A DNA stretch of 64,000 bases. Source: a phage. The notes beneath the pieces were generated by a model, which did not search any database, had not been told where the DNA came from, and saw only the letters and a program-made list of their open reading frames with translations. This document shows positions 1,564 through 24,844 of the stretch, in pieces (position 1 is the stretch's first letter; each line of letters starts with the position of its first letter). The stretch lies in the NCBI GenBank assembly GCA_018015315.1, contig GCA_018015315.1_3629.1. One strand, given 5' to 3'. A program made the position numbers and the translations under genes.

Positions 1564-1923
1564 TTAGCCCACATATTTTCTATTTCTCTCAAATAAGCGA
1601 TCCGCTTCAGTTAAACATATTTCATGGGCCTGATCTCTGGTTTTAGCCTCATCAAAAACTTGTTGTGCCAGGCTGCAGCGCAAGGAGACTGGAAGATCGC
1701 TATAATAGGCATTAACAAAAGTTTGTGCGTCATACAAGTCTGAAAATACTTTACCCTTTCTATTATTGCCCTTGTCAACAATTGCAAGGATGACCAGTAT
1801 AATAGTTGCAACCACTCCCAGGAAAATAGATATAACAAACCATAAGAAAGCTGACCTATCTATCTTGCCAGCGATCCAGGCGTTAAACAAGGCAACTAAT
1901 ACAGCTAAAATAATAAATTCCAT
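1564..1923 (-). CDS. membrane protein, two predicted TM helices (about 119 aa)
   Basis: ORF 1564..1956 with likely start MEFIILAVLV (SD GAGAGG); hydrophobic stretches EFIILAVLVALFNAWIAG and FLWFVISIFLGVVATIILVILAIV. Confidence 0.5.
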   Translation of the reverse strand: MEFIILAVLVALFNAWIAGKIDRSAFLWFVISIFLGVVATIILVILAIVDKGNNRKGKVFSDLYDAQTFVNAYYSDLPVSLRCSLAQQVFDEAKTRDQAHEICLTEADRLFERNRKYVG

Positions 1924-1987
1924 TCTATGTACCTCTCTTACATTTCTACTTAACAATAAGGCGGCAAATATGCCGCCTGTTACCTGG

Positions 1988-2368
1988 TTAAAAGTTATCG
2001 CCGTAAATTTTACCGCTTTCTACCCATACCACAACACGCGGCATATTATCCCATACATCTTGTTTTAGATTGAGGGCGTGCAATTCTTCGGTGGTGCTCA
2101 TACCTGGCACGGGTTGATTGTATACTGCAAAACGACCGCCTGCATAATCATAAGCCAGAGTTAAATCACACTGGATCATCTTTTTGATCATGGCGTTAAG
2201 CATAGCGGTAGCCGCATGCTGGTCACGTTTTAAAGGTAACGCTTTAATCAGTTTGCGATAGTTTTCGATATGGTCGCACACTGTTTCACGTGGAAGATCT
2301 TTCATATCTTCACGGAAGGTAACCAGGTTAAACATAACAGTGTCAATAGCTTTCGTGGTGTTTTTCAT
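1988..2368 (-). CDS. hypothetical protein (126 aa)
   Basis: ORF track; no recognisable motif. Confidence 0.5.
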   Translation of the reverse strand: MKNTTKAIDTVMFNLVTFREDMKDLPRETVCDHIENYRKLIKALPLKRDQHAATAMLNAMIKKMIQCDLTLAYDYAGGRFAVYNQPVPGMSTTEELHALNLKQDVWDNMPRVVVWVESGKIYGDNF

Positions 2369-2458
2369 AATGTTATCCTCTTCGTTTTGTGTGGGGGCAA
2401 ACGTCTTGCCCCCTTGAGTTTTAATATAGCACGTTTTTAGATTATTGCAACACTTTAC

Positions 2459-3082
2459 TTATGAAAAACTCATCTCGCCAGATTCATCGACATCAAACCG
2501 CCAGTCGTTGGCCTGGATGAGGCCGATCAAGTTCTCTGCCGTGAACTGTTCAAGATATGCCTCTTCAAGGCTTGCGTAAACCTTGCAAGATAGCTCCCGC
2601 ACCGTCTCGGTGATCAACTCTTCCAGCTCTTCCACTTTGTCTTCTTGTTTGGCGGTCAGATCCAGCCAGGTAGCATCAATATACCCGTTGATAGTATTTT
2701 CGTGACTATAGCGGCTGTATGCGTCACGTTCAACACTGGCTGATAGCTCGCCATCATGCATTGTTCCGAACAAGTGACGGATTGAGCGGAACTTAGTCAG
2801 CGCCTTGACTTTACGCAGGAATTTTTCCAGATCTACATTTTCAGCGCTAATTGATGCACCGTCGCCCTGACACCAAAAGCCGGACCAATGTACTTCAGTA
2901 TCTTCAAGGCCATACTCTGGAAAAACATATTCTTTATAGTATTCAATTACACTTTCTGCGAAAAAGTTATCACCGCTATTTTCTTCCCTTTCGCGGACCA
3001 TTTCAACGGCTTTTTCTTTTTGTTCGTCGGTCAGCACGTCGAAAGATAAATTGTAACCTGCAGTAATGTTAACGGTAGTCAT
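2459..3082 (-). CDS. hypothetical acidic protein (207 aa)
   Basis: ORF track; downstream of promoter 3142-3169 and a 5' stem-loop; motif FWCQGDGA not assigned to a family. Confidence 0.6.
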   Translation of the reverse strand: MTTVNITAGYNLSFDVLTDEQKEKAVEMVREREENSGDNFFAESVIEYYKEYVFPEYGLEDTEVHWSGFWCQGDGASISAENVDLEKFLRKVKALTKFRSIRHLFGTMHDGELSASVERDAYSRYSHENTINGYIDATWLDLTAKQEDKVEELEELITETVRELSCKVYASLEEAYLEQFTAENLIGLIQANDWRFDVDESGEMSFS

Positions 3083-3141
3083 GATATTTTCTCCTGTTTT
3101 CTTTTAAGTGGTGGCGGGAATTGTTCCCGCCTATGTGGTTA

Positions 3142-3169
3142 AGTATACTTGTTTAATCTTACTTGTCAA
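3142..3169 (-). promoter_or_regulatory. sigma70-type early promoter
   Basis: -35 TTGACA, 16-nt spacer, -10 TATACT; A/T-rich upstream; 5' stem-loop GGCGGGAA-ttg-TTCCCGCC at 3113-3131. Confidence 0.6.
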
Positions 3170-3419
3170 CACTATTTTTTAAATTATTGTGGCGTAAAAA
3201 GTTCAAGATCTCTTCAACATTGTCAACACGGCGGCAATTTTTGAACGCTACCAATTGCCCCAGGATTTTAATCACCGGGCGGCCCTGGCAGTAGCCTTGA
3301 AGAAAGCGCGCCTTAACTTTATCGGTGGAACTATCACGCCACCAAACCGCTTTATTGTTGCAGTAGTAAAAATTATTCAGGACTACATCAACTTTATCAA
3401 AATTTTTTAATTTACGCAT
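3159..3419 (-). CDS. hypothetical protein (86 aa)
   Basis: ORF track; promoter 3453-3480 upstream. Confidence 0.5.
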   Translation of the reverse strand: MRKLKNFDKVDVVLNNFYYCNNKAVWWRDSSTDKVKARFLQGYCQGRPVIKILGQLVAFKNCRRVDNVEEILNFLRHNNLKNSVDK

Positions 3420-6255: not shown

Positions 6256-6654
6256 TTATTCGTGGGCGCATGTCACAATGTGCTTTTTATACCCCAGGTG
6301 GGCAGCAAGTGCTGACAAAAATTCTTCCTCATAGATCCAGCCGTTGGCAGTGATCCCCATAGCATTTAATGCGCTTTCAAGTGCTGCGTTGGCCTTATCA
6401 TAACCGTGTCCGCTGGCCTTGCCGCCAGTATAACCGTACTTATTGTTCTTGCTGTCGTGCATCCAAAAGACGCAATAATGAGTGTTACCGCTAGAGGCGG
6501 CATAATACCGGATCTCGGCTACTTCGTGTAAATTATTATCATCGTCCAGGCCAACCAGATTATAAGCCTTGTAAAATCCACGATCACGGCGGCAGTTCTT
6601 GACATCAGAAAAAGAGAAGTCGGCATTGTCAAAATTAAAGGTTGTGGTTTTCAT
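6256..6654 (-). CDS. hypothetical protein (132 aa)
   Basis: ORF track; promoter 6688-6715 upstream. Confidence 0.55.
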   Translation of the reverse strand: MKTTTFNFDNADFSFSDVKNCRRDRGFYKAYNLVGLDDDNNLHEVAEIRYYAASSGNTHYCVFWMHDSKNNKYGYTGGKASGHGYDKANAALESALNAMGITANGWIYEEEFLSALAAHLGYKKHIVTCAHE

Positions 6655-6687
6655 GATTTTATCCTCTTAGTGTCTTTTGTGATTTCA

Positions 6688-6715
6688 GTATATTTTGTGT
6701 CGGGGAGTATGTCAA
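6688..6715 (-). promoter_or_regulatory. sigma70-type early promoter
   Basis: -35 TTGACA, 16-nt spacer, -10 TATACT. Confidence 0.55.
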
Positions 6716-6718
6716 TAC

Positions 6719-6916
6719 TTATTTTTTATTAAACCAGTGATTGATCTGACCTTTTGTCAGGGCGCAACGATTAAGCTGTTGCAGGGTATAGCTATGACCG
6801 CGACGAAATTTATAAAGGCCTTGCCCGTTGTTGATGGTTACGTCTACCTGGCAAACCATTTGATCGGTGACCACCTGGCGAGCGTTGCGACGTGCTTTGA
6901 TTCCGTATACGTTCAT
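6719..6916 (-). CDS. hypothetical basic protein (about 65 aa)
   Basis: ORF 6719..6994 trimmed to MNVYGIKARR start after SD AGAGGAAA. Confidence 0.45.
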   Translation of the reverse strand: MNVYGIKARRNARQVVTDQMVCQVDVTINNGQGLYKFRRGHSYTLQQLNRCALTKGQINHWFNKK

Positions 6917-6997
6917 AATGTTTTCCTCTTTGCTAGTTAGTGCGGCGTTGTTCACCTTGTAGGGAAAGAATACCAGGATTAACCAGGTTGTCAATAA

Positions 6998-7168
6998 CTA
7001 TTTCAAATTATTTTTAGGGTAGAATTCACCAGCGGCGGCCCCTGCAGCCTCAACCATCATTTTTTCATAGTCCAACCAGTTGACCAGGGCATCACGCGCC
7101 GCTTTCTCACGTCTTGCATCGATATCTTTACTGTTCACTACGATATCTTTTTTATCTTTACCTTTCAT
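6998..7168 (-). CDS. hypothetical small protein (56 aa)
   Basis: Hand-translated MKGKDKKDIVVNSKDIDARREKAARDALVNWLDYEKMMVEAAGAAAGEFYPKNNLK, SD GGAGG; last minus gene before non-coding island. Confidence 0.4.
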   Translation of the reverse strand: MKGKDKKDIVVNSKDIDARREKAARDALVNWLDYEKMMVEAAGAAAGEFYPKNNLK

Positions 7169-7350
7169 TTTATTTTCCTCCCCTTGTTGGGTATCTCGGT
7201 ATCTCTTCTTCCTGATTCTTTTATACTACTCCCCAGGGCCTGGCGCAACCATTTTATAACTTTCCTCCCTGGTCCGGTCGGACATACCGGGCTGGCCCCG
7301 CCAGGCTGCAGCGGTTGGCGCACCGGGTTAGAAAATTTTTTGAAAAAGTG

Positions 7351-7379
7351 TTGACAGCGGCCCCGCCAGGTGGCATAAT
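7351..7379 (+). promoter_or_regulatory. strong sigma70-type promoter on plus strand inside minus-strand early region
   Basis: A/T-rich UP-like tract, -35 TTGACA, 17-nt spacer with TG at -15/-14, -10 CATAAT; reads into non-coding island. Confidence 0.55.
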
Positions 7380-7404
7380 GCACTCATCGAAAGGACGGCA
7401 GGCA

Positions 7405-7470
7405 CCGGTGACGGGGGAGACAACCACCGGGGATGGGCGCTATATAAAATGAGAACGGTTATCATTATCG
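7405..7470 (+). repeat. GC-hairpin module A (core GAGACAACCACCGGG plus GAGAACGGTTATCATTATC)
   Basis: GC-rich palindrome CACCGGTG...CACCGG around conserved 15-nt core at 7427-7441; about 25 nt downstream of plus promoter. Confidence 0.5.
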
Positions 7471-7529
7471 TCTAAAAATTTATGCGAAAAATCCTTGCTT
7501 TCTTTGTCCTGCGTGATACTATAATAACA

Positions 7530-7603
7530 AGCCGGGGCAACAGGGGCCGGGAGACAACCACCGGGCCTGCCCGTTATTTAGCAAACGAGAATGATTATCA
7601 TCC
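7530..7603 (+). repeat. GC-hairpin module B (core GAGACAACCACCGGG plus GAGAATGATTATCATCC)
   Basis: Same 15-nt core at 7551-7565 flanked by GGCCGGG/CCGGGCC; preceded by TATAAT-like hexamer 7520-7525. Confidence 0.5.
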
Positions 7604-7714
7604 AAAATTCTAAATGAGAACTCCTCGCATTTACTAAATTTAATTAGCATGCTAATTACCTACCGTGACAATTCTACATAAAATAATACTCCATAAAATA
7701 TTTCCATATAGAAA

Positions 7715-8166
7715 TTTTGAAAATCCATTTCCGAAAACGAAAAATCGATTTCGTTCCCAAAAATTTCAGATCGATCGCCAGACCAATTTCCAGAAAATCC
7801 GATTCAGAAAACGAAAAACAGATCGAGTACTGAGAAATTTATCGAGAAAAATTTTCAGAAAATCCAAGCCCTGAAATGAAAAGTAGATCGAGTACCTGGA
7901 AAGCTGCACCGCAACTTCAAGATAGTGGTTAGATTGTTACCATAGAAGGTCAAGGGTAAGTGGAGGAAGTTCTAGTAGAGAGAGGTTAGCATGTGTGGGA
8001 AATCTATAATGGTGGCCTGGAATATGGTGCAAACGATAGGATGAGTTATTCAGCTTGTCGCGCCTACTCTGAAAAATCCATTTTAGTTTTCGATCCATTT
8101 TCTGATTTTCTAAGAATTTTAAAATATCCGGCCCGGTGAAATATCAAAAGGAGGAAATCCATTTTA
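7715..8166 (+). repeat. array of degenerate direct repeats with core GAAAATCC(A)
   Basis: Core at about 7719, 7793, 7858, 8072, 8153; three units share ...GAAAAnnGATCGAGTAC; two distal units share GAAATCCATTTTAG; no convincing ORF. Confidence 0.6.
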
Positions 8167-8207
8167 GAAATCCCCCTTATACTTGATATGCCAGGAATTT
8201 TCAAGTA

Positions 8208-8537
8208 TCAGCTGTCTTTGTTTTTAGGTTTGTACATGCGCAGAGGTATGGTCTTTGTAACATTCCATTTCCTCAACCCTTCCCAGCTCCAGTTGTGGGC
8301 GTGATACCCGGTTATGCATGCACTGCTGGCGTGATCATAAGCATAAGAGAACGCTATGTGCACCAGGTGGGGCCAGTCCTTCCACGGCTGTGGACCGTAA
8401 GCCTTTCTCCAACACCGACACAAACTAATTGTCTCAAGAATAGGGAGAATAACAATTCCATATACCACCACCAGAATGGTCAGTGCAATGATTGTCAGGA
8501 ACACATACCCTGCAGTTGAAATGATGATCTCTGTCAT
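8208..8537 (-). CDS. integral membrane protein (109 aa)
   Basis: ORF track; hydrophobic stretch YVFLTIIALTILVVVYGIVILPIL. Confidence 0.5.
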   Translation of the reverse strand: MTEIIISTAGYVFLTIIALTILVVVYGIVILPILETISLCRCWRKAYGPQPWKDWPHLVHIAFSYAYDHASSACITGYHAHNWSWEGLRKWNVTKTIPLRMYKPKNKDS

Positions 8538-8737
8538 TTGTCGTCCCCTTTCTTACGAATATAGATGTGAGAGCCTGCCTGTATATAAATTTCTCGACCA
8601 TCCTCTGCAAAGATATGAAATACACGATCACCTTCGTACTCGATACTAGATATCTTCATAATGGTCTTTCCACCTGGGATACGGATCTCGTCCCCCACAG
8701 CGATGTTCCATGCAGATTTAAGCTTAAACATCTGCAC
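8534..8737 (-). CDS. hypothetical protein (67 aa)
   Basis: ORF track; 4-nt overlap with next gene. Confidence 0.45.
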   Translation of the reverse strand: MQMFKLKSAWNIAVGDEIRIPGGKTIMKISSIEYEGDRVFHIFAEDGREIYIQAGSHIYIRKKGDDK

Positions 8738-8969
8738 CCTCCTTTGGGAACTTGAATTCTGGCATAGCCGTATACGCTACAACAGGGTTGTGATCAAAGT
8801 AGAACTGACCGTTAATTATCCCGGTTTTGTCCACATAGTTACCAGATCCTGCAAGAACAACCTCGCAAGCTCCGAAATCCACATTGCCATTCTCATCTGC
8901 CATGGCTACAATATACTTTCCTAGAGGCATGTTTTTAACGCCGTCTACAAATGTCCACCCTTTGTTCAT
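8724..8969 (-). CDS. hypothetical protein (81 aa)
   Basis: ORF track. Confidence 0.5.
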   Translation of the reverse strand: MNKGWTFVDGVKNMPLGKYIVAMADENGNVDFGACEVVLAGSGNYVDKTGIINGQFYFDHNPVVAYTAMPEFKFPKEGADV

Positions 8970-8990
8970 AACTTTATCTCCTGGACTTTC

Positions 8991-9323
8991 TTAAGGTAAC
9001 CAGTAAACAATTTCGCCTTTCAGTTCCATGTCGTTACCGACATAGATTTTCCAGCCATCCATTTTAGCCACTGCAGGAGTGAAGTCCGAAGAACCACTAA
9101 CCTCTTTCCAAGTCCCGTAGTCAGGTTGCCAGATATAGAATCCACCTTCCTTGTCCCATGCTCCATATACCACATCGAGCAGGTTGCCCATTGCAACAAT
9201 AGTAGGCCGTGGGAACAATGCATCTACAGATGCGCCACAATATCTAGTATCTTTTAAATTGCACTCCCAAAAGATGTCTGCCAGTGTGGCGGCGATAGCT
9301 TTACGTCTTTCTAATGTTACCAT
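8991..9323 (-). CDS. hypothetical protein (110 aa)
   Basis: ORF track. Confidence 0.5.
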   Translation of the reverse strand: MVTLERRKAIAATLADIFWECNLKDTRYCGASVDALFPRPTIVAMGNLLDVVYGAWDKEGGFYIWQPDYGTWKEVSGSSDFTPAVAKMDGWKIYVGNDMELKGEIVYWLP

Positions 9324-16162: not shown

Positions 16163-18940
16163 TTAGTGACAATCACCCCAGTTACGACCACACAAGTATT
16201 CACCTGTGATCTGGAACGGGACTCCCATCATTTTAGAAGCTTGCCAGAAGCAATGCACCACCATTTCACCCACAGGGCTCCAGATAAGTTCAAGCTTTCC
16301 GTCATCGTTCAGGATAGGATCGTACACCGTGTTTCCGTCTCTGTCAACCACTTCGTTTCCGTTTTCATCCTTGCGTGCCTTTTTGTACTTATGACCGTCA
16401 AACACATGAAGTTTGGACTCCTGCTCTGCCTTAAATGCTTCCAATTCTTCAATTGTGTCGAAGGTGTACACAGTCTTATACTTAGGCGTGTCAGGGACCT
16501 GAAGTTGGTACTCATCATGGTAATAAATAATACGACGAACACCTTCATCGTACCACCCACGCTTCACCATTTGGTGGTGCATGAGTATCCCAACTAAGTC
16601 ACACAACGATGCACCACCATTTTGTTGGTATGCATTAAGTAAAGAGTGTTTAGATCGGGTCCAGATAGCATGACCATCAAAAGAGTAGATAAACTTCTTA
16701 CCCGTTGCTTCCCAGAATTTCTCCAGATCCTCTTTACGCCCTTTAAGACCAGGGTTGGCATCCCAAAGCGCATCGATTACCCTTTGCCCCAACTCTGGGG
16801 AGATATCCAGCATGTCTGCAACTTTATCTTTTTGTGCCCCATACATAACCCCGTACGTGATAGGTTTACCGTCGTTACGAGACACCTCTCTACCTGCTAC
16901 TTTCGTATATGCCTCAGCATTGTTTTGGTGGGCATCCCCGTTACTTACAACATCGTAATACAGGCCGTTGTCGAACTCAAAGGCACCCCAAGCCCCGATA
17001 AGCTGCTCTAAGTTGGACCCGTCAATACCGATCTCAAAGTATCCTGGAGGAACACCCCACAGACTGCGCATCTCTTTACCCATAACCACTTTAGGAGATG
17101 GTTTAGGCATGTTTGCACAAATACTGTGTTTCTGTCGGGAAGTGTTTGTTAATCCAGAACTTTTAGCAGGGAGCTTATGGTCAATCTTCAAACGTGGGTG
17201 ATTAAGAAGACCAGTATCAACCTTATCCTCCTTGATTGGATCAAGGACCGATCTGCGATTTCGCAATGATAACCACAAGACGATATCTTTAGCCATCTCT
17301 CCGTTCAATTTTTCAAGATTTGGGCATAGGTGTCCAAACGTATCTTTCAGCTGCGGAGAAGTAATAAGTGCTCTGGCTTTTCTACGTATTTTCCCGAATA
17401 CTTCCTTTTTAATCCTTTCGGAGTTAGGAAAGCTTCGGAACTTGTGCACTGTTGTCTGAAACTTAGCATCAGTTTTGTTCCAGAAGTTGATAATTAGATC
17501 ACAATACTCTGACTCTAAAAGCTCGTCCATGTATGCATATACTCGTGCATCAACATCTGCATCAGGTAGAGCTTTCTTCTTGCTGTCTTTAGTTACATCC
17601 TTAGTTCTCCACATTGTCGGAAGCCAACCAGCACTGATCAGGTATCGCTTAATGTCGTCCTGATTGCTGATTTTCATAGGTATCTTGCAGTCCGGCATTC
17701 GCTTCTGCTGTAGATCACTTATTGCCTGATCCATCAGCTCTTTAGGTAAAGGTTGTGGTGTGGAAGTGCCCTTAATATAGCCTCTCAAGAAATCAGCCAT
17801 CTTATCAAGGTCTTTGCAGCCCATCTCTTCACACCATTTTATCCCCATCTTGCTGACATCTCCTGTGGAGGTAAATGCTCGCTTAGGCGGGGCTTTGAAC
17901 TCTAAAGCACTCATGTCCACAGGATAGCCAAGCTTATCTTTTAACCATTTCCAACCATTGTTGGAGATTGTCCCATCTTGGTTAAACGGCTTTTCAGGGA
18001 ACTTGGGCCGCTGAGACATTGACAGCTCTTTTAAAGGAAGTTGAGGTTCAACACGATCAGCGATTTCTTTCATCCACGCATCGCAACGGTCACGTAAAGC
18101 AATAGCTCCATCTATGTCGAAGTATACACCCTGACGGGCCTGCAGCTCCATCAGGAAGTGCTGCAGCATGCCTCGACGTAGTGCGTTCTTCCAGGTGATC
18201 TTCTTGAACCCTTTCGGCTTCTCTTTGGCTGGATCGTACATAAAGTTCTGCATGTCAGATTTGCCGTAGAATACACCTTTTGATTCCGCTACCAGCTCTT
18301 TCCAGAGCAGCTCCTGGATGATAACGTCCTCGAATACACGATCCACATACTTCCACAACGGAAGATCGCGCCAGTCATCAATTTGAACTTTCTGGTTACC
18401 AAGGGCGTAGCCCCATGCCATAAGGCCGTGAGGACCAACAGGCTGCATTTTCTTAGTAACCGGGTTGAATACAGAGTCCGGACAACCTTTTGGTAAAGGG
18501 CGATCAGGCCACAAGATTCGGCTCATCGCCAACGTATCAAACAGGTTAACCTGGTGGTCGTTGATAGTCCCCATACATTTAGGATCACGGAACATATCAA
18601 AATGAATACCGGATAATCTCTCCATCAGCATAAAGTCATAACTGTAGCAGTTATGGCAGTTCAAAGCTGTTGGTGACCAGTCGGAATTGCCTGTAAGCCA
18701 ACCCTCCAACTCTGAAAAATCTGCTATGCGAACTTCAAAATCCTTATAAAGAGTTTTCTTTGCCAGAATAAAGTTCTTAGCCTTCTCTATATCCTCCTCG
18801 GAGTAGTGTGTGCGGTCATTCAGAGGAAGGAACAGCATAAAACGGTTCTTATTCAACGCTTTAAACAGGCCGCAGTGATAATAAAGGTCTGGATCTTCCA
18901 AAAGCCCAGAGGCCTCAAAATCGAAGCTATACATACTCAT
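16163..18940 (-). CDS. DNA polymerase, family A, with 3'-5' exonuclease domain
   Basis: Exo I FDFEASGL; Pol A motif B RNDGKPITYGVMYG; motif C YYHDEYQLQV; 925 aa; SD AAGGAG 8 nt before ATG. Confidence 0.9.
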   Translation of the reverse strand: MSMYSFDFEASGLLEDPDLYYHCGLFKALNKNRFMLFLPLNDRTHYSEEDIEKAKNFILAKKTLYKDFEVRIADFSELEGWLTGNSDWSPTALNCHNCYSYDFMLMERLSGIHFDMFRDPKCMGTINDHQVNLFDTLAMSRILWPDRPLPKGCPDSVFNPVTKKMQPVGPHGLMAWGYALGNQKVQIDDWRDLPLWKYVDRVFEDVIIQELLWKELVAESKGVFYGKSDMQNFMYDPAKEKPKGFKKITWKNALRRGMLQHFLMELQARQGVYFDIDGAIALRDRCDAWMKEIADRVEPQLPLKELSMSQRPKFPEKPFNQDGTISNNGWKWLKDKLGYPVDMSALEFKAPPKRAFTSTGDVSKMGIKWCEEMGCKDLDKMADFLRGYIKGTSTPQPLPKELMDQAISDLQQKRMPDCKIPMKISNQDDIKRYLISAGWLPTMWRTKDVTKDSKKKALPDADVDARVYAYMDELLESEYCDLIINFWNKTDAKFQTTVHKFRSFPNSERIKKEVFGKIRRKARALITSPQLKDTFGHLCPNLEKLNGEMAKDIVLWLSLRNRRSVLDPIKEDKVDTGLLNHPRLKIDHKLPAKSSGLTNTSRQKHSICANMPKPSPKVVMGKEMRSLWGVPPGYFEIGIDGSNLEQLIGAWGAFEFDNGLYYDVVSNGDAHQNNAEAYTKVAGREVSRNDGKPITYGVMYGAQKDKVADMLDISPELGQRVIDALWDANPGLKGRKEDLEKFWEATGKKFIYSFDGHAIWTRSKHSLLNAYQQNGGASLCDLVGILMHHQMVKRGWYDEGVRRIIYYHDEYQLQVPDTPKYKTVYTFDTIEELEAFKAEQESKLHVFDGHKYKKARKDENGNEVVDRDGNTVYDPILNDDGKLELIWSPVGEMVVHCFWQASKMMGVPFQITGEYLCGRNWGDCH

Positions 18941-18998: not shown

Positions 18999-21077
18999 TT
19001 AAAAAGGTGTTTCATCGTCTTCAAAACCAGGGACCGGATCAGAGGATGGATCATCGTATTGGAGGTCTTCCTGCGTGTCAATAGGCTTGACAGTGGGTGT
19101 TACAACCTTATCAGCCACAACCTTGCCCATAGGTGTTTCTACAACTGCATGCTCTTGATCCTCAAACATAGCCTGAGGTCTCCAAACAACCTCCCCACCT
19201 TCTCCGTCTGTAAACATTTGCATTTCTTTGTCCCAGTACCAATTACTGGCATCATGGAACTTACCTGTGTGCGGGTCCATAACTAAAGTGTCAGCAATAC
19301 CTAAAGTTTTTGCTGGACGGTTCTTAAGACCTACCAGACGGACACGTCCACGAGAACGATCCACCATTTCTTCGGCCTCAACACCTATGACTACCCAACT
19401 CAACTGTTCAAGCCCAGCCGATCCTCGCAAATTCTCTTTTCGCACAGGATACCAGAAAGGTAACGGGTTACCATTTTTGTCCTTAGGAGGCACAATCTCT
19501 GTACGTTTGAGGTGAGCGATCACCAAGATAAACACGTTAAACTGCTTACAAAACGCAGCCAGTTGGGTCATAGCCATGTCCAGTTCTTTTCGCTCATCCT
19601 TAACATTAAGCCCTGAAATTACCATGGACAGGTGATCCAGCACAATATAACGACAATGGTACAGGCAAACCATTTGCTTAAGCTTGGTAATCAACTCGTC
19701 CACCGGAATAGACCCGAAATGTTTGAACACTTTGATTTTTCCAGCTTTTGCCCATGATTGGTGAATCTCTGCGTGTTCTTGATCAGTTAAAAACTGGCTA
19801 GGATCTTCAACAAACTCTTTAACATCAAACCCTAACTGGTTTGCATACAAGGAGTTAATTGCTTCCTCTGGATCCTCCTCAAGATGGATCATGCATAGAC
19901 GATCATCCTCTTCATAGTCATCGGCCTTCGGGCATGTCGGGTCCATTAGGTATCTTGCAATACAGTGTTCCAGTTTTTTAGCCACGGTTGTTTTACCGCC
20001 GCCTGATGGACCTGTAAGCATTATGAGTGTCCCTTTGTGCAAGCCTTTTAGCATTTTTTGCAGTTTTGGGAACTCTGCACTGATATCTACCCCGTTGGAA
20101 GTCTTTTTCCGCAAAGACTCGATAGAGAAGTCTTCTAAATCCGACACAGCATCAGGCACATATTTAACAGGGTGCCGGAACATGTTGACAATATCTTCCA
20201 GCTTTTTAGCCTTCAGCATGTCTCGGATATCTTTTACACCGTCAGGGTCATTTACTTCACCAGGGTATTCTACGTGGTAAACGTTATCAGCCATCAAAAA
20301 TGCTGCGATATTGTGCGTGGCCTCAACACCTTTAATGACGTGTTTTTGCTTCTCTACCTCGTTAGCTGCATCGTTATCCATTGCCAGCACAACTGTTCCA
20401 TAGCTACGGATAAACTTCTCATTGTTTGCAAAAGTATCTACTGCGTTTGCACATCCACAGTTAATTCCAACAAAAGGCAGGCAGGGTTTTCCTGCCAGAT
20501 CACCACCGTTGATAACTGCGTCGATCCCGTCCTGGACCTCTTTAGCCCACTGCTTCACCTTTGCCGGGGCTTTAGCGTTGGTGAGAATCCCTTTTACTTG
20601 TATCTGATATGCAGCCTGCCATGCTGCAATAACATCACCTTCTCCCTCACAAACGTTAATCTGCTTACGGTTGTTGGAAGATGCACACAGCTTTTGACCA
20701 AACATCTGAGAGTTGGCCTTTACGATGCCAACAACGGAGAAATGGCCCCTTTGCTCTTTAGGAATAGTCCAGTCACGCTTTTTGAAACCGGACAGATTCC
20801 CGTAGCGGTCGTAATATGGGAAATATGTTGCAGTAACTGTCACACCGTCTTCTTGGGACAATGCTGATCGCACACCAAAATATTGTGCAGCCATCAGACC
20901 GATATTTTGTTGTGGGACAGGGACGATTTTAGTATTTTCTAAAACAGTCTCTACAGTTTCAACCTCTTTTTCATCACGATAGTCTCGTTTCACACTTCCC
21001 CCACTTTTATACTTAGTTGCTTTCGGGTTTGGCTCACCGAAACGGTTGTATGCAGATGCCATAAATTTACTTCCCAT
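18999..21077 (-). CDS. bifunctional primase-helicase (Toprim + DnaB/gp4-like helicase)
   Basis: Toprim CEGEGD and LAMDNDAAN; Walker A GPSGGGKTT; Walker B IVLDH; ends in acidic tail EDDETPF; SD AAGGAG. Confidence 0.85.
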   Translation of the reverse strand: MGSKFMASAYNRFGEPNPKATKYKSGGSVKRDYRDEKEVETVETVLENTKIVPVPQQNIGLMAAQYFGVRSALSQEDGVTVTATYFPYYDRYGNLSGFKKRDWTIPKEQRGHFSVVGIVKANSQMFGQKLCASSNNRKQINVCEGEGDVIAAWQAAYQIQVKGILTNAKAPAKVKQWAKEVQDGIDAVINGGDLAGKPCLPFVGINCGCANAVDTFANNEKFIRSYGTVVLAMDNDAANEVEKQKHVIKGVEATHNIAAFLMADNVYHVEYPGEVNDPDGVKDIRDMLKAKKLEDIVNMFRHPVKYVPDAVSDLEDFSIESLRKKTSNGVDISAEFPKLQKMLKGLHKGTLIMLTGPSGGGKTTVAKKLEHCIARYLMDPTCPKADDYEEDDRLCMIHLEEDPEEAINSLYANQLGFDVKEFVEDPSQFLTDQEHAEIHQSWAKAGKIKVFKHFGSIPVDELITKLKQMVCLYHCRYIVLDHLSMVISGLNVKDERKELDMAMTQLAAFCKQFNVFILVIAHLKRTEIVPPKDKNGNPLPFWYPVRKENLRGSAGLEQLSWVVIGVEAEEMVDRSRGRVRLVGLKNRPAKTLGIADTLVMDPHTGKFHDASNWYWDKEMQMFTDGEGGEVVWRPQAMFEDQEHAVVETPMGKVVADKVVTPTVKPIDTQEDLQYDDPSSDPVPGFEDDETPF

Positions 21078-23135: not shown

Positions 23136-23477
23136 CTACTGAAGGTCTTCAGAGTCAAGCTCAAAAAGAATCAAACTGTGCATGCTTGCAGAGAGATCAA
23201 CGCACCCTGCAATAATAAGGGTCTGATAGTAAGGTTCAGCACCCTCAATGTCTTCGTTAAAATCTACAACAAGATAGTCACCTTTGTTAAAGATGTATTT
23301 GTCCGATGTAAACGCAAAACCTGCCCAGTCCCCTACTGCAGGATCTTTATCAGTCACCTTTGTTAGCAGTAGGTCTTTTTCACGAGATCTTTTAGTAAAA
23401 TCGTGAATCACAACATCCTTCTCTTCAGGAGTTGGACTACCACACACGTAGTTAACTATATTTCTCCACAAACTCAT
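23136..23477 (-). CDS. hypothetical protein (113 aa)
   Basis: ORF track; 4-nt overlap with helicase gene. Confidence 0.5.
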   Translation of the reverse strand: MSLWRNIVNYVCGSPTPEEKDVVIHDFTKRSREKDLLLTKVTDKDPAVGDWAGFAFTSDKYIFNKGDYLVVDFNEDIEGAEPYYQTLIIAGCVDLSASMHSLILFELDSEDLQ

Positions 23478-24844
23478 ACGTCCCCCTCTTCTGCTCTGGT
23501 TTCAAAATCTTTCCTGACAATTTTGTCTAAGTCAGGGAATGTTGTATTGTAAAACTCTACGACTCGCGGGTCAACAATAATATCAACTTCTCTTAGTGGA
23601 CGCAACAAGTTTATCCCTTGTATTGTCTTAACTCGACTCAAAGCAACATACGTCATCCCAGGAGAGAAAGCTCCGTTCTTTCCAAGGTCTAGGTTGTAAC
23701 AATCTAGCGTAAGTCCTTGACTTTTATGAGATGTTACGGCGTACCCAGATTTTAGAGGAAGTTGCTTGTATGACCCAATCACCACCCTCTCTATAAACTT
23801 CTCCATCTTCCTTTCTGCAATGTTGTATCTTTGAGATGGCTTATACTCGTTATTCTCCCACAACCTTTGCTCTATGTCAACCTGTGTTCCATCTTCAAGC
23901 TCCACCACCACCGCCTTGTTCTTAAATTTAACAATTGTGGCACGTGTTCCGTTAACATAATAAGGTACTTTGTGCGTCGGGTCAACATCGTTGGCGGTTA
24001 TCATAACCTTCATGCCAATTTTCAACTTCATCTCCTGCTCAACTGGCAGGGTGGAGGGAAACTTACCTTTCATTTCACCAGTGTATACCTTTTCTGGGGC
24101 GTTGATGGCATCATAGAACCTTCTGTTCACTTCCTCCGCTTGTTTGTTGGTGGCGCAAATTGTGAGAGCGTCTGTTGGTACACCGCCTTTGTAACAACGA
24201 GCATTAAGTTCTGCTACAACCTCTTTTATGCGACGACCCTCACGAACACAGTTGAGCATTGTGGCAAATCGAATAGACTCCTGTCGGAACTGATCTACTA
24301 GGGCTATGTTGTGGAGGTCAAGCTCTTTCCAAGATTCGGTATAGCAACACAGGTCCGTATGGTAGAAGTTGAAGTAGGCTTCCTTCTCCATAGAAGATAC
24401 AACAGGAGGTGCTTGGTAAAAATCGCCAAACAATATGACCTGTATGCCTCCGAAAGGTTTGTCATTTTTTCGAAGGAAGCGGAGTTTCCTATCCATCTCT
24501 ATAAACTTATCAGCACGGATCATAGAGATTTCATCGATAATTAGGATGGTAAATGCCTTGCTTTTCAAAGGCTTTGCTGTTTTTGCCCTTATTGCAGTCC
24601 AGTCCGACTCCATGCTCACACCTGCTGCAAGATCGAATGTTCGGTGTGCTGTTGCTCCATTAACGTTTAATGCGGCTACCCCTGTCGGGGCAACCGTTAT
24701 GCAAGAGTCTCCATACATGGACTGGATCATGTTGATGAGGTATGTCTTCCCACAACCTGCGGGTCCTGAAACGAAGACATTCTCACCGCTCATGATTGCA
24801 ATGAGGGCAGCATCTGTGCCTACGTCATACTGCCCTTTTTCCAT
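23474..24844 (-). CDS. PIF1/Dda-like superfamily 1 DNA helicase
   Basis: Walker A GPAGCGKT; ITVAPTGVAA; ILIIDEISM; GDFYQAPPV; C-terminal ALSRVKT. Confidence 0.85.
   Translation of the reverse strand: MEKGQYDVGTDAALIAIMSGENVFVSGPAGCGKTYLINMIQSMYGDSCITVAPTGVAALNVNGATAHRTFDLAAGVSMESDWTAIRAKTAKPLKSKAFTILIIDEISMIRADKFIEMDRKLRFLRKNDKPFGGIQVILFGDFYQAPPVVSSMEKEAYFNFYHTDLCCYTESWKELDLHNIALVDQFRQESIRFATMLNCVREGRRIKEVVAELNARCYKGGVPTDALTICATNKQAEEVNRRFYDAINAPEKVYTGEMKGKFPSTLPVEQEMKLKIGMKVMITANDVDPTHKVPYYVNGTRATIVKFKNKAVVVELEDGTQVDIEQRLWENNEYKPSQRYNIAERKMEKFIERVVIGSYKQLPLKSGYAVTSHKSQGLTLDCYNLDLGKNGAFSPGMTYVALSRVKTIQGINLLRPLREVDIIVDPRVVEFYNTTFPDLDKIVRKDFETRAEEGDV

Follow-up and report, generated by a model that had tools for sequence, protein, structure and literature searches.

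The primary replication origin of bacteriophage T7 consists of the tandem promoters phi1.1A and phi1.1B followed by an AT-rich region, and oriF and oriG of T4 and RNA II of ColE1 represent R-loop origins. Iteron origins, such as ori-lambda, those of pSC101 and R6K, and the PLE origin with its RepA iterons (PMC7145576), have direct repeats beside an AT-rich region in a large space free of open reading frames (ORFs). Here we describe an island of about 1 kb at positions 7170-8207 of a 64,000-nucleotide stretch of phage DNA (contig GCA_018015315.1_3629.1; the whole stretch is called the window). The island is non-coding amid the nearly all-coding genome of an rV5-like E. coli phage (Vequintavirus), and it is surrounded by a long series of small minus-strand early ORFs. 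An earlier note, made from the letters of the window, had described it as a non-coding, motif-dense island, and this observation is confirmed: the features lie where they had been placed and stand above chance, with some numbers corrected. The island is a cis-acting non-coding control region and most likely serves as a replication origin activated by transcription or as a unit for a non-coding RNA under Fur control.

We put a probability of roughly 0.4 on the island being a Fur-gated, transcription-activated replication origin. In such an origin, host RNA polymerase would start rightward at two partly duplicated promoter–leader cassettes, P1 and P2, and behind each leader it would meet an operator for Fur, the iron regulator of the host. 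Any transcript extending past these Fur boxes would traverse a stretch of 69% AT and three iteron-like units and would then fold into a structured RNA domain at 7895-8045. Rightward transcription would open or prime the phage origin, or both, as in the T7 primary origin or the R-loop origins of T4 and ColE1, and binding of Fe-Fur would make initiation responsive to the iron status of the host.

Promoters, leaders and Fur boxes

An alignment of 13 Vequintavirus genomes (the window and 12 relatives) has shown that three parts of the island are near-invariant, namely 7292-7660 (GC block, P1, module 1 leader, Fur box, P2, module 2 leader, two further boxes and the palindrome TAATTAGCATGCTAATTA), 7700-7900 and 8066-8175. 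Near-invariant blocks of 60-200 nt persist despite an identity of 83-90% in the genomes otherwise. The regions 7170-7290 and 7900-8060 are variable.

The near-consensus sigma70 promoter that the earlier note had placed at 7351-7379 on the plus strand is well founded. P1 (TTGACA-17-CATAAT) matches the consensus at 11 of 12 positions, has a TG before the -10 element, is near-invariant across the 13 genomes and has a predicted start near 7386. Its equivalent in two divergent metagenomic relatives, L137 and L104, is TTGACA-16-TATTAT, and promoters equivalent to P1 and P2 exist in five other genera. Upstream of P1, at 7292-7350 on the plus strand, there is a conserved GC-rich block, GGCCCCGCCAGG (repeat family D7, with a second occurrence at 7359-7375); the A/T tract after it varies in length and may be UP-element-like. 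P2 (7495-7525, plus strand) reads TTGCTT-19-TATAAT, or TTGCTT-16-TACTAT with a TG before the -10 element, and its predicted start is near 7531; it was read directly from the sequence and was not reported by the consensus scan. P2 is almost invariant among the 13 genomes, and other genera have TTGCAA-17-TATATT or TTGATC-16-TATTAT at this position. Both P1 and P2 are predicted to fire. Just upstream of the -35 element of the second promoter, five loci of other genera contain GTAAA-N5-GTAAA exactly once (L005:2419, L006:2418, L008:2443, L009:2429 and L012:2429), a motif that may resemble the CpxR-binding consensus and that is absent elsewhere in those five 5 kb loci and from the window.

The module 1 leader (7386-7447, plus strand) carries only two single-base variants over its 60 nt in the 13 genomes and is conserved beyond the level of the flanking genes, and its candidate stem pairs CCGGTG (7404-7409) with CACCGG (7426-7431). 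The module 2 leader (7531-7583, plus strand) has a CCGG stem (7547-7550/7561-7564) closing the loop GAGACAACCA, followed by CCTGCCCG; 7556-7631, which includes part of this module, retains 75-85% identity in distant genera. The 15-nt core GAGACAACCACCGGG, which the earlier note had found to be shared by the two modules (7417-7431 and 7551-7565), occurs only at these two places within 64 kb; the spacing is 134 nt and not about 125. The modules align at 100 identical positions in 172 columns, indicating a partly duplicated promoter–leader–Fur-box cassette, and in L137 module 1 is a still closer copy of module 2. The GC palindromes in which the core had been said to be embedded are present, but they fold no better than shuffled sequences (z = -0.95 and -0.66 for modules 1 and 2, with values for the module 1 leader reaching -1.26). 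The pairing register of the 15-mer differs between the copies. On either side of the module 2 hairpin, the AC/GT and CC/GG variants are found in each of the four possible combinations, so that covariation lends these hairpins no support. The proposal that the two modules are small structured RNAs is not supported: they show no better folding than shuffles, pair in differing registers and have no clear compensatory change.

Other arrangements of this part of the locus are seen in relatives. L104 has one promoter–leader–box module and L137 has two nearly identical ones, and in both (L137, reverse complement 1-1700; L104, reverse complement 1701-3370) an extra repeat class of approximately GGTGATTAATAGTTAC, in 4-8 copies, lies between the Fur box and the conserved palindrome. 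In sister genera a near-consensus promoter is followed by a GC-rich plus-strand RNA, named RNA1, that is strongly conserved (L005:2307-2420, L006:2306-2420, L008:2333-2445, L009:2316-2430 and L012:2316-2430). RNA1, with the sequence ...CGCCACCCCACGGCGWAAAGGCGGGGCUAACRUACC...GGUYGGAAGGUKRAUCGCCGG..., has a consensus fold with one compensatory pair (G-C to A-U) and has no Rfam match; in the window it is apparently replaced by module 1. The 5' half of module 1 of the window resembles the middle of RNA1, and module 1 may be an RNA1 remnant overwritten by module 2 sequence.

Fur box 1 (7448-7470) contains GAGAACGGTTATCATTATC at 7451-7469, which matches the Fur 19-mer GATAATGATAATCATTATC at 16 of 19 positions when read on the minus strand and is the sole match of at least 15/19 in 64 kb, where 0.13 would be expected. 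The stretch 7584-7631 is taken up by box 2 (7584-7605) and by box 3 (7613-7631, AATGAGAACTCCTCGCATT), a weaker palindrome. The 19-mer is matched at 14/19 both at 7581 and at 7587, box 2, CGAGAATgATTATCA, fits the 7-1-7 motif TGATAATnATTATCA with its inverted-repeat symmetry at 12 of 14 positions, and the 9-1-9 palindrome of the relatives, AATGAGAATnATTMTCATT, gives 15-17/18. Proven E. coli Fur boxes match the 19-bp consensus at 11-13/19 only (PMC3145626), and both island boxes exceed this level, their scores of 16/19 and 14/19 being the best in the 64 kb. The earlier note had recorded a second motif shared by the modules; its copies are at 7451-7469 and 7587-7605 and agree over GAGAAYGRTTATCAT only, and their identity as a Fur operator had been missed. 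That this motif is a host Fur operator changes the mechanism to be considered.

Bacterial genomes support this identification. When the 15-mer of the window, GAGAATGATTATCAT, was searched for in bacteria, each species being represented by one genome, 120 matches were returned, of which 103 are intergenic, and their flanks extend the palindrome. Eight of ten tested genes adjoining the 15-mer are concerned with iron uptake (six TonB-dependent receptors, FeoB and an AraC-type regulator fused to a periplasmic binding domain), the ten having been chosen by size, which biases them toward receptors. As judged from sequence, the second shared motif is a bona fide host Fur-operator sequence. A tblastn search of the window with E. 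coli Fur gave no match to a phage-encoded Fur, so that the binder would be host Fur, and Fur would be expected to bind the island boxes. Relative to the P2 start, box 1 is 60-80 bp upstream, and boxes 2 and 3 fall downstream at about +55 to +100; GAP31 and BIS47 have a third promoter, which follows the boxes at a distance of about 20 bp. Another Fur-like site of the window, TGATAATAATTTACA at 6527-6546, agrees with the 7-1-7 motif at 12/14 and with the 19-mer at 14/19; it is located within the minus-strand gene 6256-6654 and probably matches by chance.

Repeat units, RNA fold and conservation of the layout

Behind P1 and P2 the AT content is 69% at 7600-7800. The most AT-rich stretch of the island (7632-7705, about 69% AT), with the perfect palindrome TAATTAGCATGCTAATTA at 7641-7658, could serve as an unwinding element or as a weak promoter, P3. 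P1 and P2 thus read into a 69% AT stretch with no conserved ORF downstream, an origin-like arrangement. Three iteron-like repeat units of 58 nt each follow on the plus strand within 7706-7902 (7706-7763, 7780-7837 and 7845-7902). They have the layout GAAAATCC ... GAAAACGAAAAA ... GATCGAGTAC, start-to-start distances of 74 and 65 bp, and near-invariant sequence in the 13 genomes. At least five direct repeats had been counted here; the island has three exact copies of GAAAATCC (7719, 7793 and 7858) and one-off variants at 7486, 8071 (GAAAAATCC) and 8153 (GGAAATCC). The whole window contains six exact copies, against about 2.8 expected by chance. The strongly conserved right-hand block (8066-8175) has the GAAAAATCC/GGAAATCC-CATTTTAG copies at 8071 and 8153, AAATATC repeats at 8122 and 8139, and the repeat families D4-D6, so that at least five classes of repeated motif fall inside 1 kb. 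A second copy of the repeat region elsewhere was looked for and rejected, as a self-search of the window found none and the non-coding box of rV5 lacks GAAAATCC; the two match places per record in the database search most likely reflect the offset between internal repeats.

The plus strand is distinguished in composition and in predicted structure. Its purine content at 7780-8000 is 0.645 (z = +3.8), which places it among the most purine-rich 200-nt windows of the 64 kb. Comparable purine content is found elsewhere in the window only in plus-strand coding genes, and the region around the island is otherwise minus-strand coded. A candidate structured RNA domain at 7895-8045 on the plus strand, with a long-range helix (7905-7910/8026-8031) and inner hairpins, is variable in sequence with pairing retained, and its RNAalifold consensus fold has an energy of -13.98 kcal/mol on the plus strand versus -2.44 on the minus strand. 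In this fold 94.7% of cells are paired versus 33-48% with slid partners, the structure having been derived from the same 12 sequences in which the pairs were counted. In eight pairs both partners change, and G-U, a pairing possible on the plus strand only, makes up one third of the paired cells. A covariance model of the fold found matches in Vequintavirus only, and the divergent Vequintavirus L139 retains the fold in part only. The repeat region is unstructured as plus-strand RNA, and a search of the island found no plus-strand terminator. The near-invariance of P1, its equivalents in five other genera, the purine excess and the plus-strand-only fold together support the earlier premise of plus-strand transcription. 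The idea of small structured RNAs followed by iterons survives in part: the repeat units are conserved across genera, but the candidate structured RNA lies downstream of the repeats and not in the modules. Rfam covariance models gave no match at E <= 1 within 6500-9000 of the window and only chance-level matches on six related loci, and a search for tRNA and tmRNA found neither.

Database records that match the island region number 117, at 83-97% identity, and nearly all are Vequintavirus E. coli phages. Among them are 16 or 17 records titled 'Campylobacter phage' (MG0656xx series), which are 88-98% identical to E. coli Vequintavirus over the island, suggesting host mislabelling or contamination in those deposits. 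More distant loci come from Seunavirus (GAP31 and EC152), Mydovirus (BIS47), Certrevirus (CB7 and F5M1E), Phapecoctavirus (UP17 and ZCKP1) and Aeromonas phage 2L372X. On the plus strand these loci share the order of a strong sigma70 promoter, a GC-rich RNA, a second promoter, a CCGG hairpin with an AGACAAnCA-like loop, 2-4 palindromic boxes and repeats. The repeats comprise 2-5 units ending in GATCGAG(A/T)(A/C)C, mostly 63-84 bp apart. This core (GATCGAGWMC) and its spacing recur in Seunavirus, Mydovirus, Certrevirus and the Aeromonas Plateaulakevirus, and AAATATC is found two to four times at the right edge in Seunavirus, Mydovirus and Certrevirus and is absent from the Phapecoctavirus and Aeromonas loci. 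In Phapecoctavirus, L104 and L137, different repeat classes accompany or replace the GATCGAG units, a pattern to be expected if the sites and a binding protein encoded by the phage evolve together. The earlier note had named absence of the core motif and repeats from syntenic relatives as grounds for refuting it; they are near-invariant in the 13 Vequintavirus genomes, and the layout recurs in five other genera.

No ORF is preserved across the 13 genomes, in agreement with the earlier statement that the island holds no credible one. The plus-strand K/R-rich ORF of 69 aa (7665-7874) is full length in the window and in one of the 12 relatives only. The minus-strand ORF 7323-7601, which corresponds to rV5 ORF198, is open in 10 of the 13 genomes; in the window and in the relative L001 its counterpart runs for seven codons before a stop, and in L002 it is cut down to 79 aa with a 1-nt insertion inside. 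Sequence variation in the island has no codon-like pattern. Three Vequintavirus annotations leave about 1 kb here without a coding sequence, and those of GAP31, BIS47, UP17 and CB7 in the sister genera have none over the corresponding stretch. Many records annotate hypothetical ORFs in the island, and annotators should be warned that 'hypothetical proteins' called there are probably not genes. In most loci of the distant genera a variable small plus-strand ORF lies left of the promoter, and a search of the window found no homologue of these ORFs. Those of Phapecoctavirus and Certrevirus (L008:2035-2301 and L009:1996-2284) share the motif LGWQGGTVHQVA..TGL, which neither the window nor the equivalently placed ORFs of Seunavirus and Mydovirus contain; the ORFs that bear it could encode DNA-binding proteins tied to the island.

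The variable spacer at 7170-7291 adjoins the start of the leftward gene 6998-7168, contains indels and is largely deleted in four relatives. The earlier note had the island open with a GC-rich segment, and the GC content is indeed 0.545 at 7200-7399 versus about 0.42-0.45 around it, but approximately 7240-7290 is deleted in four relatives, so that this part of the opening is dispensable.

A possible replication origin and its alternatives

The replisome genes lie about 8 kb from the island, on the same strand: a putative family-A DNA polymerase (16163-18940), a DnaB-like helicase (18999-21077) and a PIF1 helicase (23474-24844). The DnaB_C and PIF1 matches are clear, the DNA_pol_A match has 31.7 bits, below the Pfam cut-off of 34.3, and a domain search of the window's replisome proteins detected no primase domain. 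A replisome of the T7-like type is the one that uses transcript-primed origins in T7. In rV5, polymerase A has been reported and gp230 has been described as primase/helicase-like (PMC3606486). The premises common to the two readings of the earlier note, structured RNAs with iterons and a transcription-activated origin, are supported by the plus-strand promoters, the sense-like plus strand and the conserved repeats, and either reading is possible. In favor of an origin are the variety of repeated site classes, the AT-rich stretch behind the promoters, the purine-rich predicted transcript, the putative T7-like replisome and the lack of another located origin in rV5, whose authors were unable to place one from skew (PMC3606486). 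In the searchable literature no replication origin is reported for rV5-like phages, and nothing relevant on the rV5 origin or on Vequintavirus transcriptomes was found.

Several observations weigh against an origin. No initiator gene adjoins the island, and the repeat units are long composites of 58-74 nt, unlike the classical iterons of 17-22 bp, with a spacing that is not strictly in helical phase; in Phapecoctavirus the repeats at that position differ from the GATCGAG units. The Fur boxes overlap no -35 or -10 element, which is atypical for Fur repression, and Fur-box arrays beside terminase genes in unrelated phages suggest that such boxes need not be tied to replication. The functional element may be the RNA product itself, as a conserved fold downstream suggests. 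The skew of rV5 follows transcription only (PMC3606486). In 30 kb of phage ICP1 around its coarsely mapped early origin (45-75 kb; NAR 2019 paper) no comparable island or boxes were found, the published coordinate possibly belonging to another ICP1 isolate.

The position of the island in the genome bears on some of the alternatives. Its counterpart in rV5 is at about 116.7-117.7 kb, separate from the 2.6 kb ORF-less box of rV5 at 104-106.6 kb (PMC3606486). The relative KPP-1 has a 514-bp direct terminal repeat at 116,316-116,829, between convergent transcription units (PMC9862379). This position corresponds to that of the other, ORF-less box of rV5, about 11 kb from the island, so that the island is not the genome end, and the idea of a genome terminus or pac site at the island was rejected on this ground. 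The other box also contains Fur-like boxes, TGGGAATACTTCTCA, TGAGAATACCTATCA and TGAGAATAGTTATCA (L003:4985-5133, corresponding to rV5 at about 104,984-105,132, and L007:2714-3320 in KPP-1), and in rV5 and KPP-1 it has a separate repeat family of the TGTTTAC type. The numbering of the EdH4 and bov10K2 records, which would begin at the physical genome end, places the island about 11.3 kb (8%) from the left end.

The origin ranks first among the explanations, and next comes a possible but somewhat doubtful one, in which the island holds one or more Fur-regulated non-coding RNA genes. The product would be trans-acting, antisense to the convergent minus-strand genes from 8208 on, or a protein sponge; the repeats and the fold would act at the RNA level, and replication would not be involved. 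Bacterial Fur typically controls small RNAs such as RyhB, and the plus-strand-specific structure with its compensatory and G-U changes, the purine-rich, sense-strand-like plus strand and the structured, conserved RNA1 behind a strong promoter in sister genera all favor an RNA. There is also a precedent for a non-coding repeat RNA in the subfamily, the pseudo-ToxI of phiTE (PMC3475682). Such a gene is, however, difficult to reconcile with the lack of a detected plus-strand terminator and of an Rfam match, with leaders that fold no better than shuffles, with a repeat region that is unstructured as RNA and conserved across genera as short DNA motifs, and with a fold whose covariance model is limited to Vequintavirus and which L139 keeps only partly. 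The Fur boxes might instead be decoys that titrate Fur as genome copies rise and derepress host iron uptake for iron-dependent enzymes of the phage, the rest being ordinary promoter DNA. Multicopy Fur boxes do derepress Fur-regulated genes in the Fur titration assay, FURTA (PMC3145626). When loci were collected around the same 15-mer, 16 of 120 viral ones proved to have at least three non-overlapping boxes inside 600 nt, as against none of 120 from bacteria, and the terminal non-coding region of rV5 and KPP-1 adds further Fur-like boxes. Titration is nevertheless unlikely: the island has two or three boxes only, the iteron-like units and the RNA fold would be left unexplained, and the position of the boxes relative to promoters and repeats is fixed across genera, which points to a role in cis.

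The remaining explanations are progressively less likely. That the island is an ordinary early-gene junction, made of leftover promoters, terminators and decayed small genes, with Fur boxes that tune the neighbouring early genes only, would suit the real small plus-strand ORF that sister genera have behind the first promoter and Vequintavirus lacks, the dispensable 7170-7290 and a weak minus-strand terminator-like site at 7368-7352. It is made improbable by the near-invariant blocks in otherwise diverged genomes, by the order of non-coding motifs conserved across subfamilies and by the RNA structure signal. The T5 injection stop signal lies at about 8% of the genome, and the T7 promoters A1-A3 pull DNA into the cell. 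A DNA-entry checkpoint like that of T5, or an inward promoter set like that of T7, would fit an island at 8% of the genome from the inferred left end (with the KPP-1 terminal repeat in the homologous convergent box), its richness in repeats and palindromes and its tandem strong host promoters; it would explain neither the Fur boxes nor the RNA fold, and we regard it as very improbable. Least credible of all is that the island encodes small proteins, as annotated in several records, or is a packaging site or terminal repeat. Hypothetical ORFs stand in many records and a few database records start or end near the island, but these ORFs are broken or absent in different genomes and show no codon-like variation, and the direct terminal repeat of KPP-1 maps to the other non-coding box.

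Fur-box arrays in phages and comparison with known systems

The 15-mer of the island is also present in many unrelated viral contigs of IMG/VR. Unrelated contigs with 3-7 Fur-like boxes in non-coding DNA include L109:3310-3525, L056:4039-4270, L130:983-1130, L024:6969-7585, L032:7823-8255 and L018:14690-14800, and several such arrays lie about 0.3-2 kb from a gene for the terminase large subunit. These observations lead to a broader hypothesis, possible but somewhat doubtful, that lytic phages of many unrelated lineages carry dedicated Fur-operator arrays in their main non-coding control regions. Fur would then be a general host factor by which phages couple genome replication or late expression to iron, or which they titrate so that iron uptake is derepressed. 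The arrays would lie in the island and the terminal non-coding box in Vequintavirinae and beside the terminase operon in other phages, and in Vequintavirinae they would be fused to a transcript-primed origin that makes a structured non-coding RNA. The searchable literature contains no paper describing Fur operators in control regions of lytic phages. The island offers a concrete origin candidate for the rV5-like phages, a common group of E. coli phages that have a broad host range and find use in therapy and biocontrol. If Fur binds, the iron status of the host would feed into phage development through a regulator with a site conserved in many different hosts, and the efficacy of these phages at iron-poor infection sites could be affected.

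The island boxes resemble bacterial Fur operators in their matches of 16/19 and 14/19 to the consensus, and the identical 15-mer precedes iron-uptake genes across bacterial phyla. They differ in that they sit in a lytic phage with no iron-related gene after them, and not over the -35 and -10 elements but either downstream of a promoter or 60-80 bp in front of one; phage boxes also occur in denser arrays. Like pseudo-ToxI of Pectobacterium phage phiTE, the island would be a transcribed non-coding repeat locus in a Vequintavirinae genome. Identity with pseudo-ToxI was considered and rejected, as the locus is a different one (phiTE_202/203 versus phiTE_078/079) and the units are 58-74 nt long here versus 36-nt ToxI-like repeats there. 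The T5 injection stop region is likewise non-coding, dense in repeats and palindromes, and about 8% of the genome length from one end.

The likeness to described origins is one of architecture. As in the T7 primary origin, the tandem promoters of the island face an AT-rich non-coding stretch, and this phage has a putative family-A polymerase and a DnaB-like helicase. The G-rich or purine-rich leader, which would favor RNA–DNA hybrids, recalls the R-loop origins of T4 and ColE1, and a folded RNA about 500-650 nt downstream of the island starts recalls ColE1 RNA II. Unlike the promoters of the T7 and T4 origins, those of the island are of the host sigma70 type and not of the phage-polymerase or MotA type, and Fur operators and long repeat units are interposed in the island, which distinguishes it from the origins of T7, T4 and ColE1. 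Iteron origins are matched by direct repeats that adjoin an AT-rich region within a sizeable space free of ORFs, by host-factor sites beside the repeats and by repeat classes that differ between lineages, whereas the composite units, the strong promoters that read into the array and the lack of an identified initiator gene set the island apart from them.

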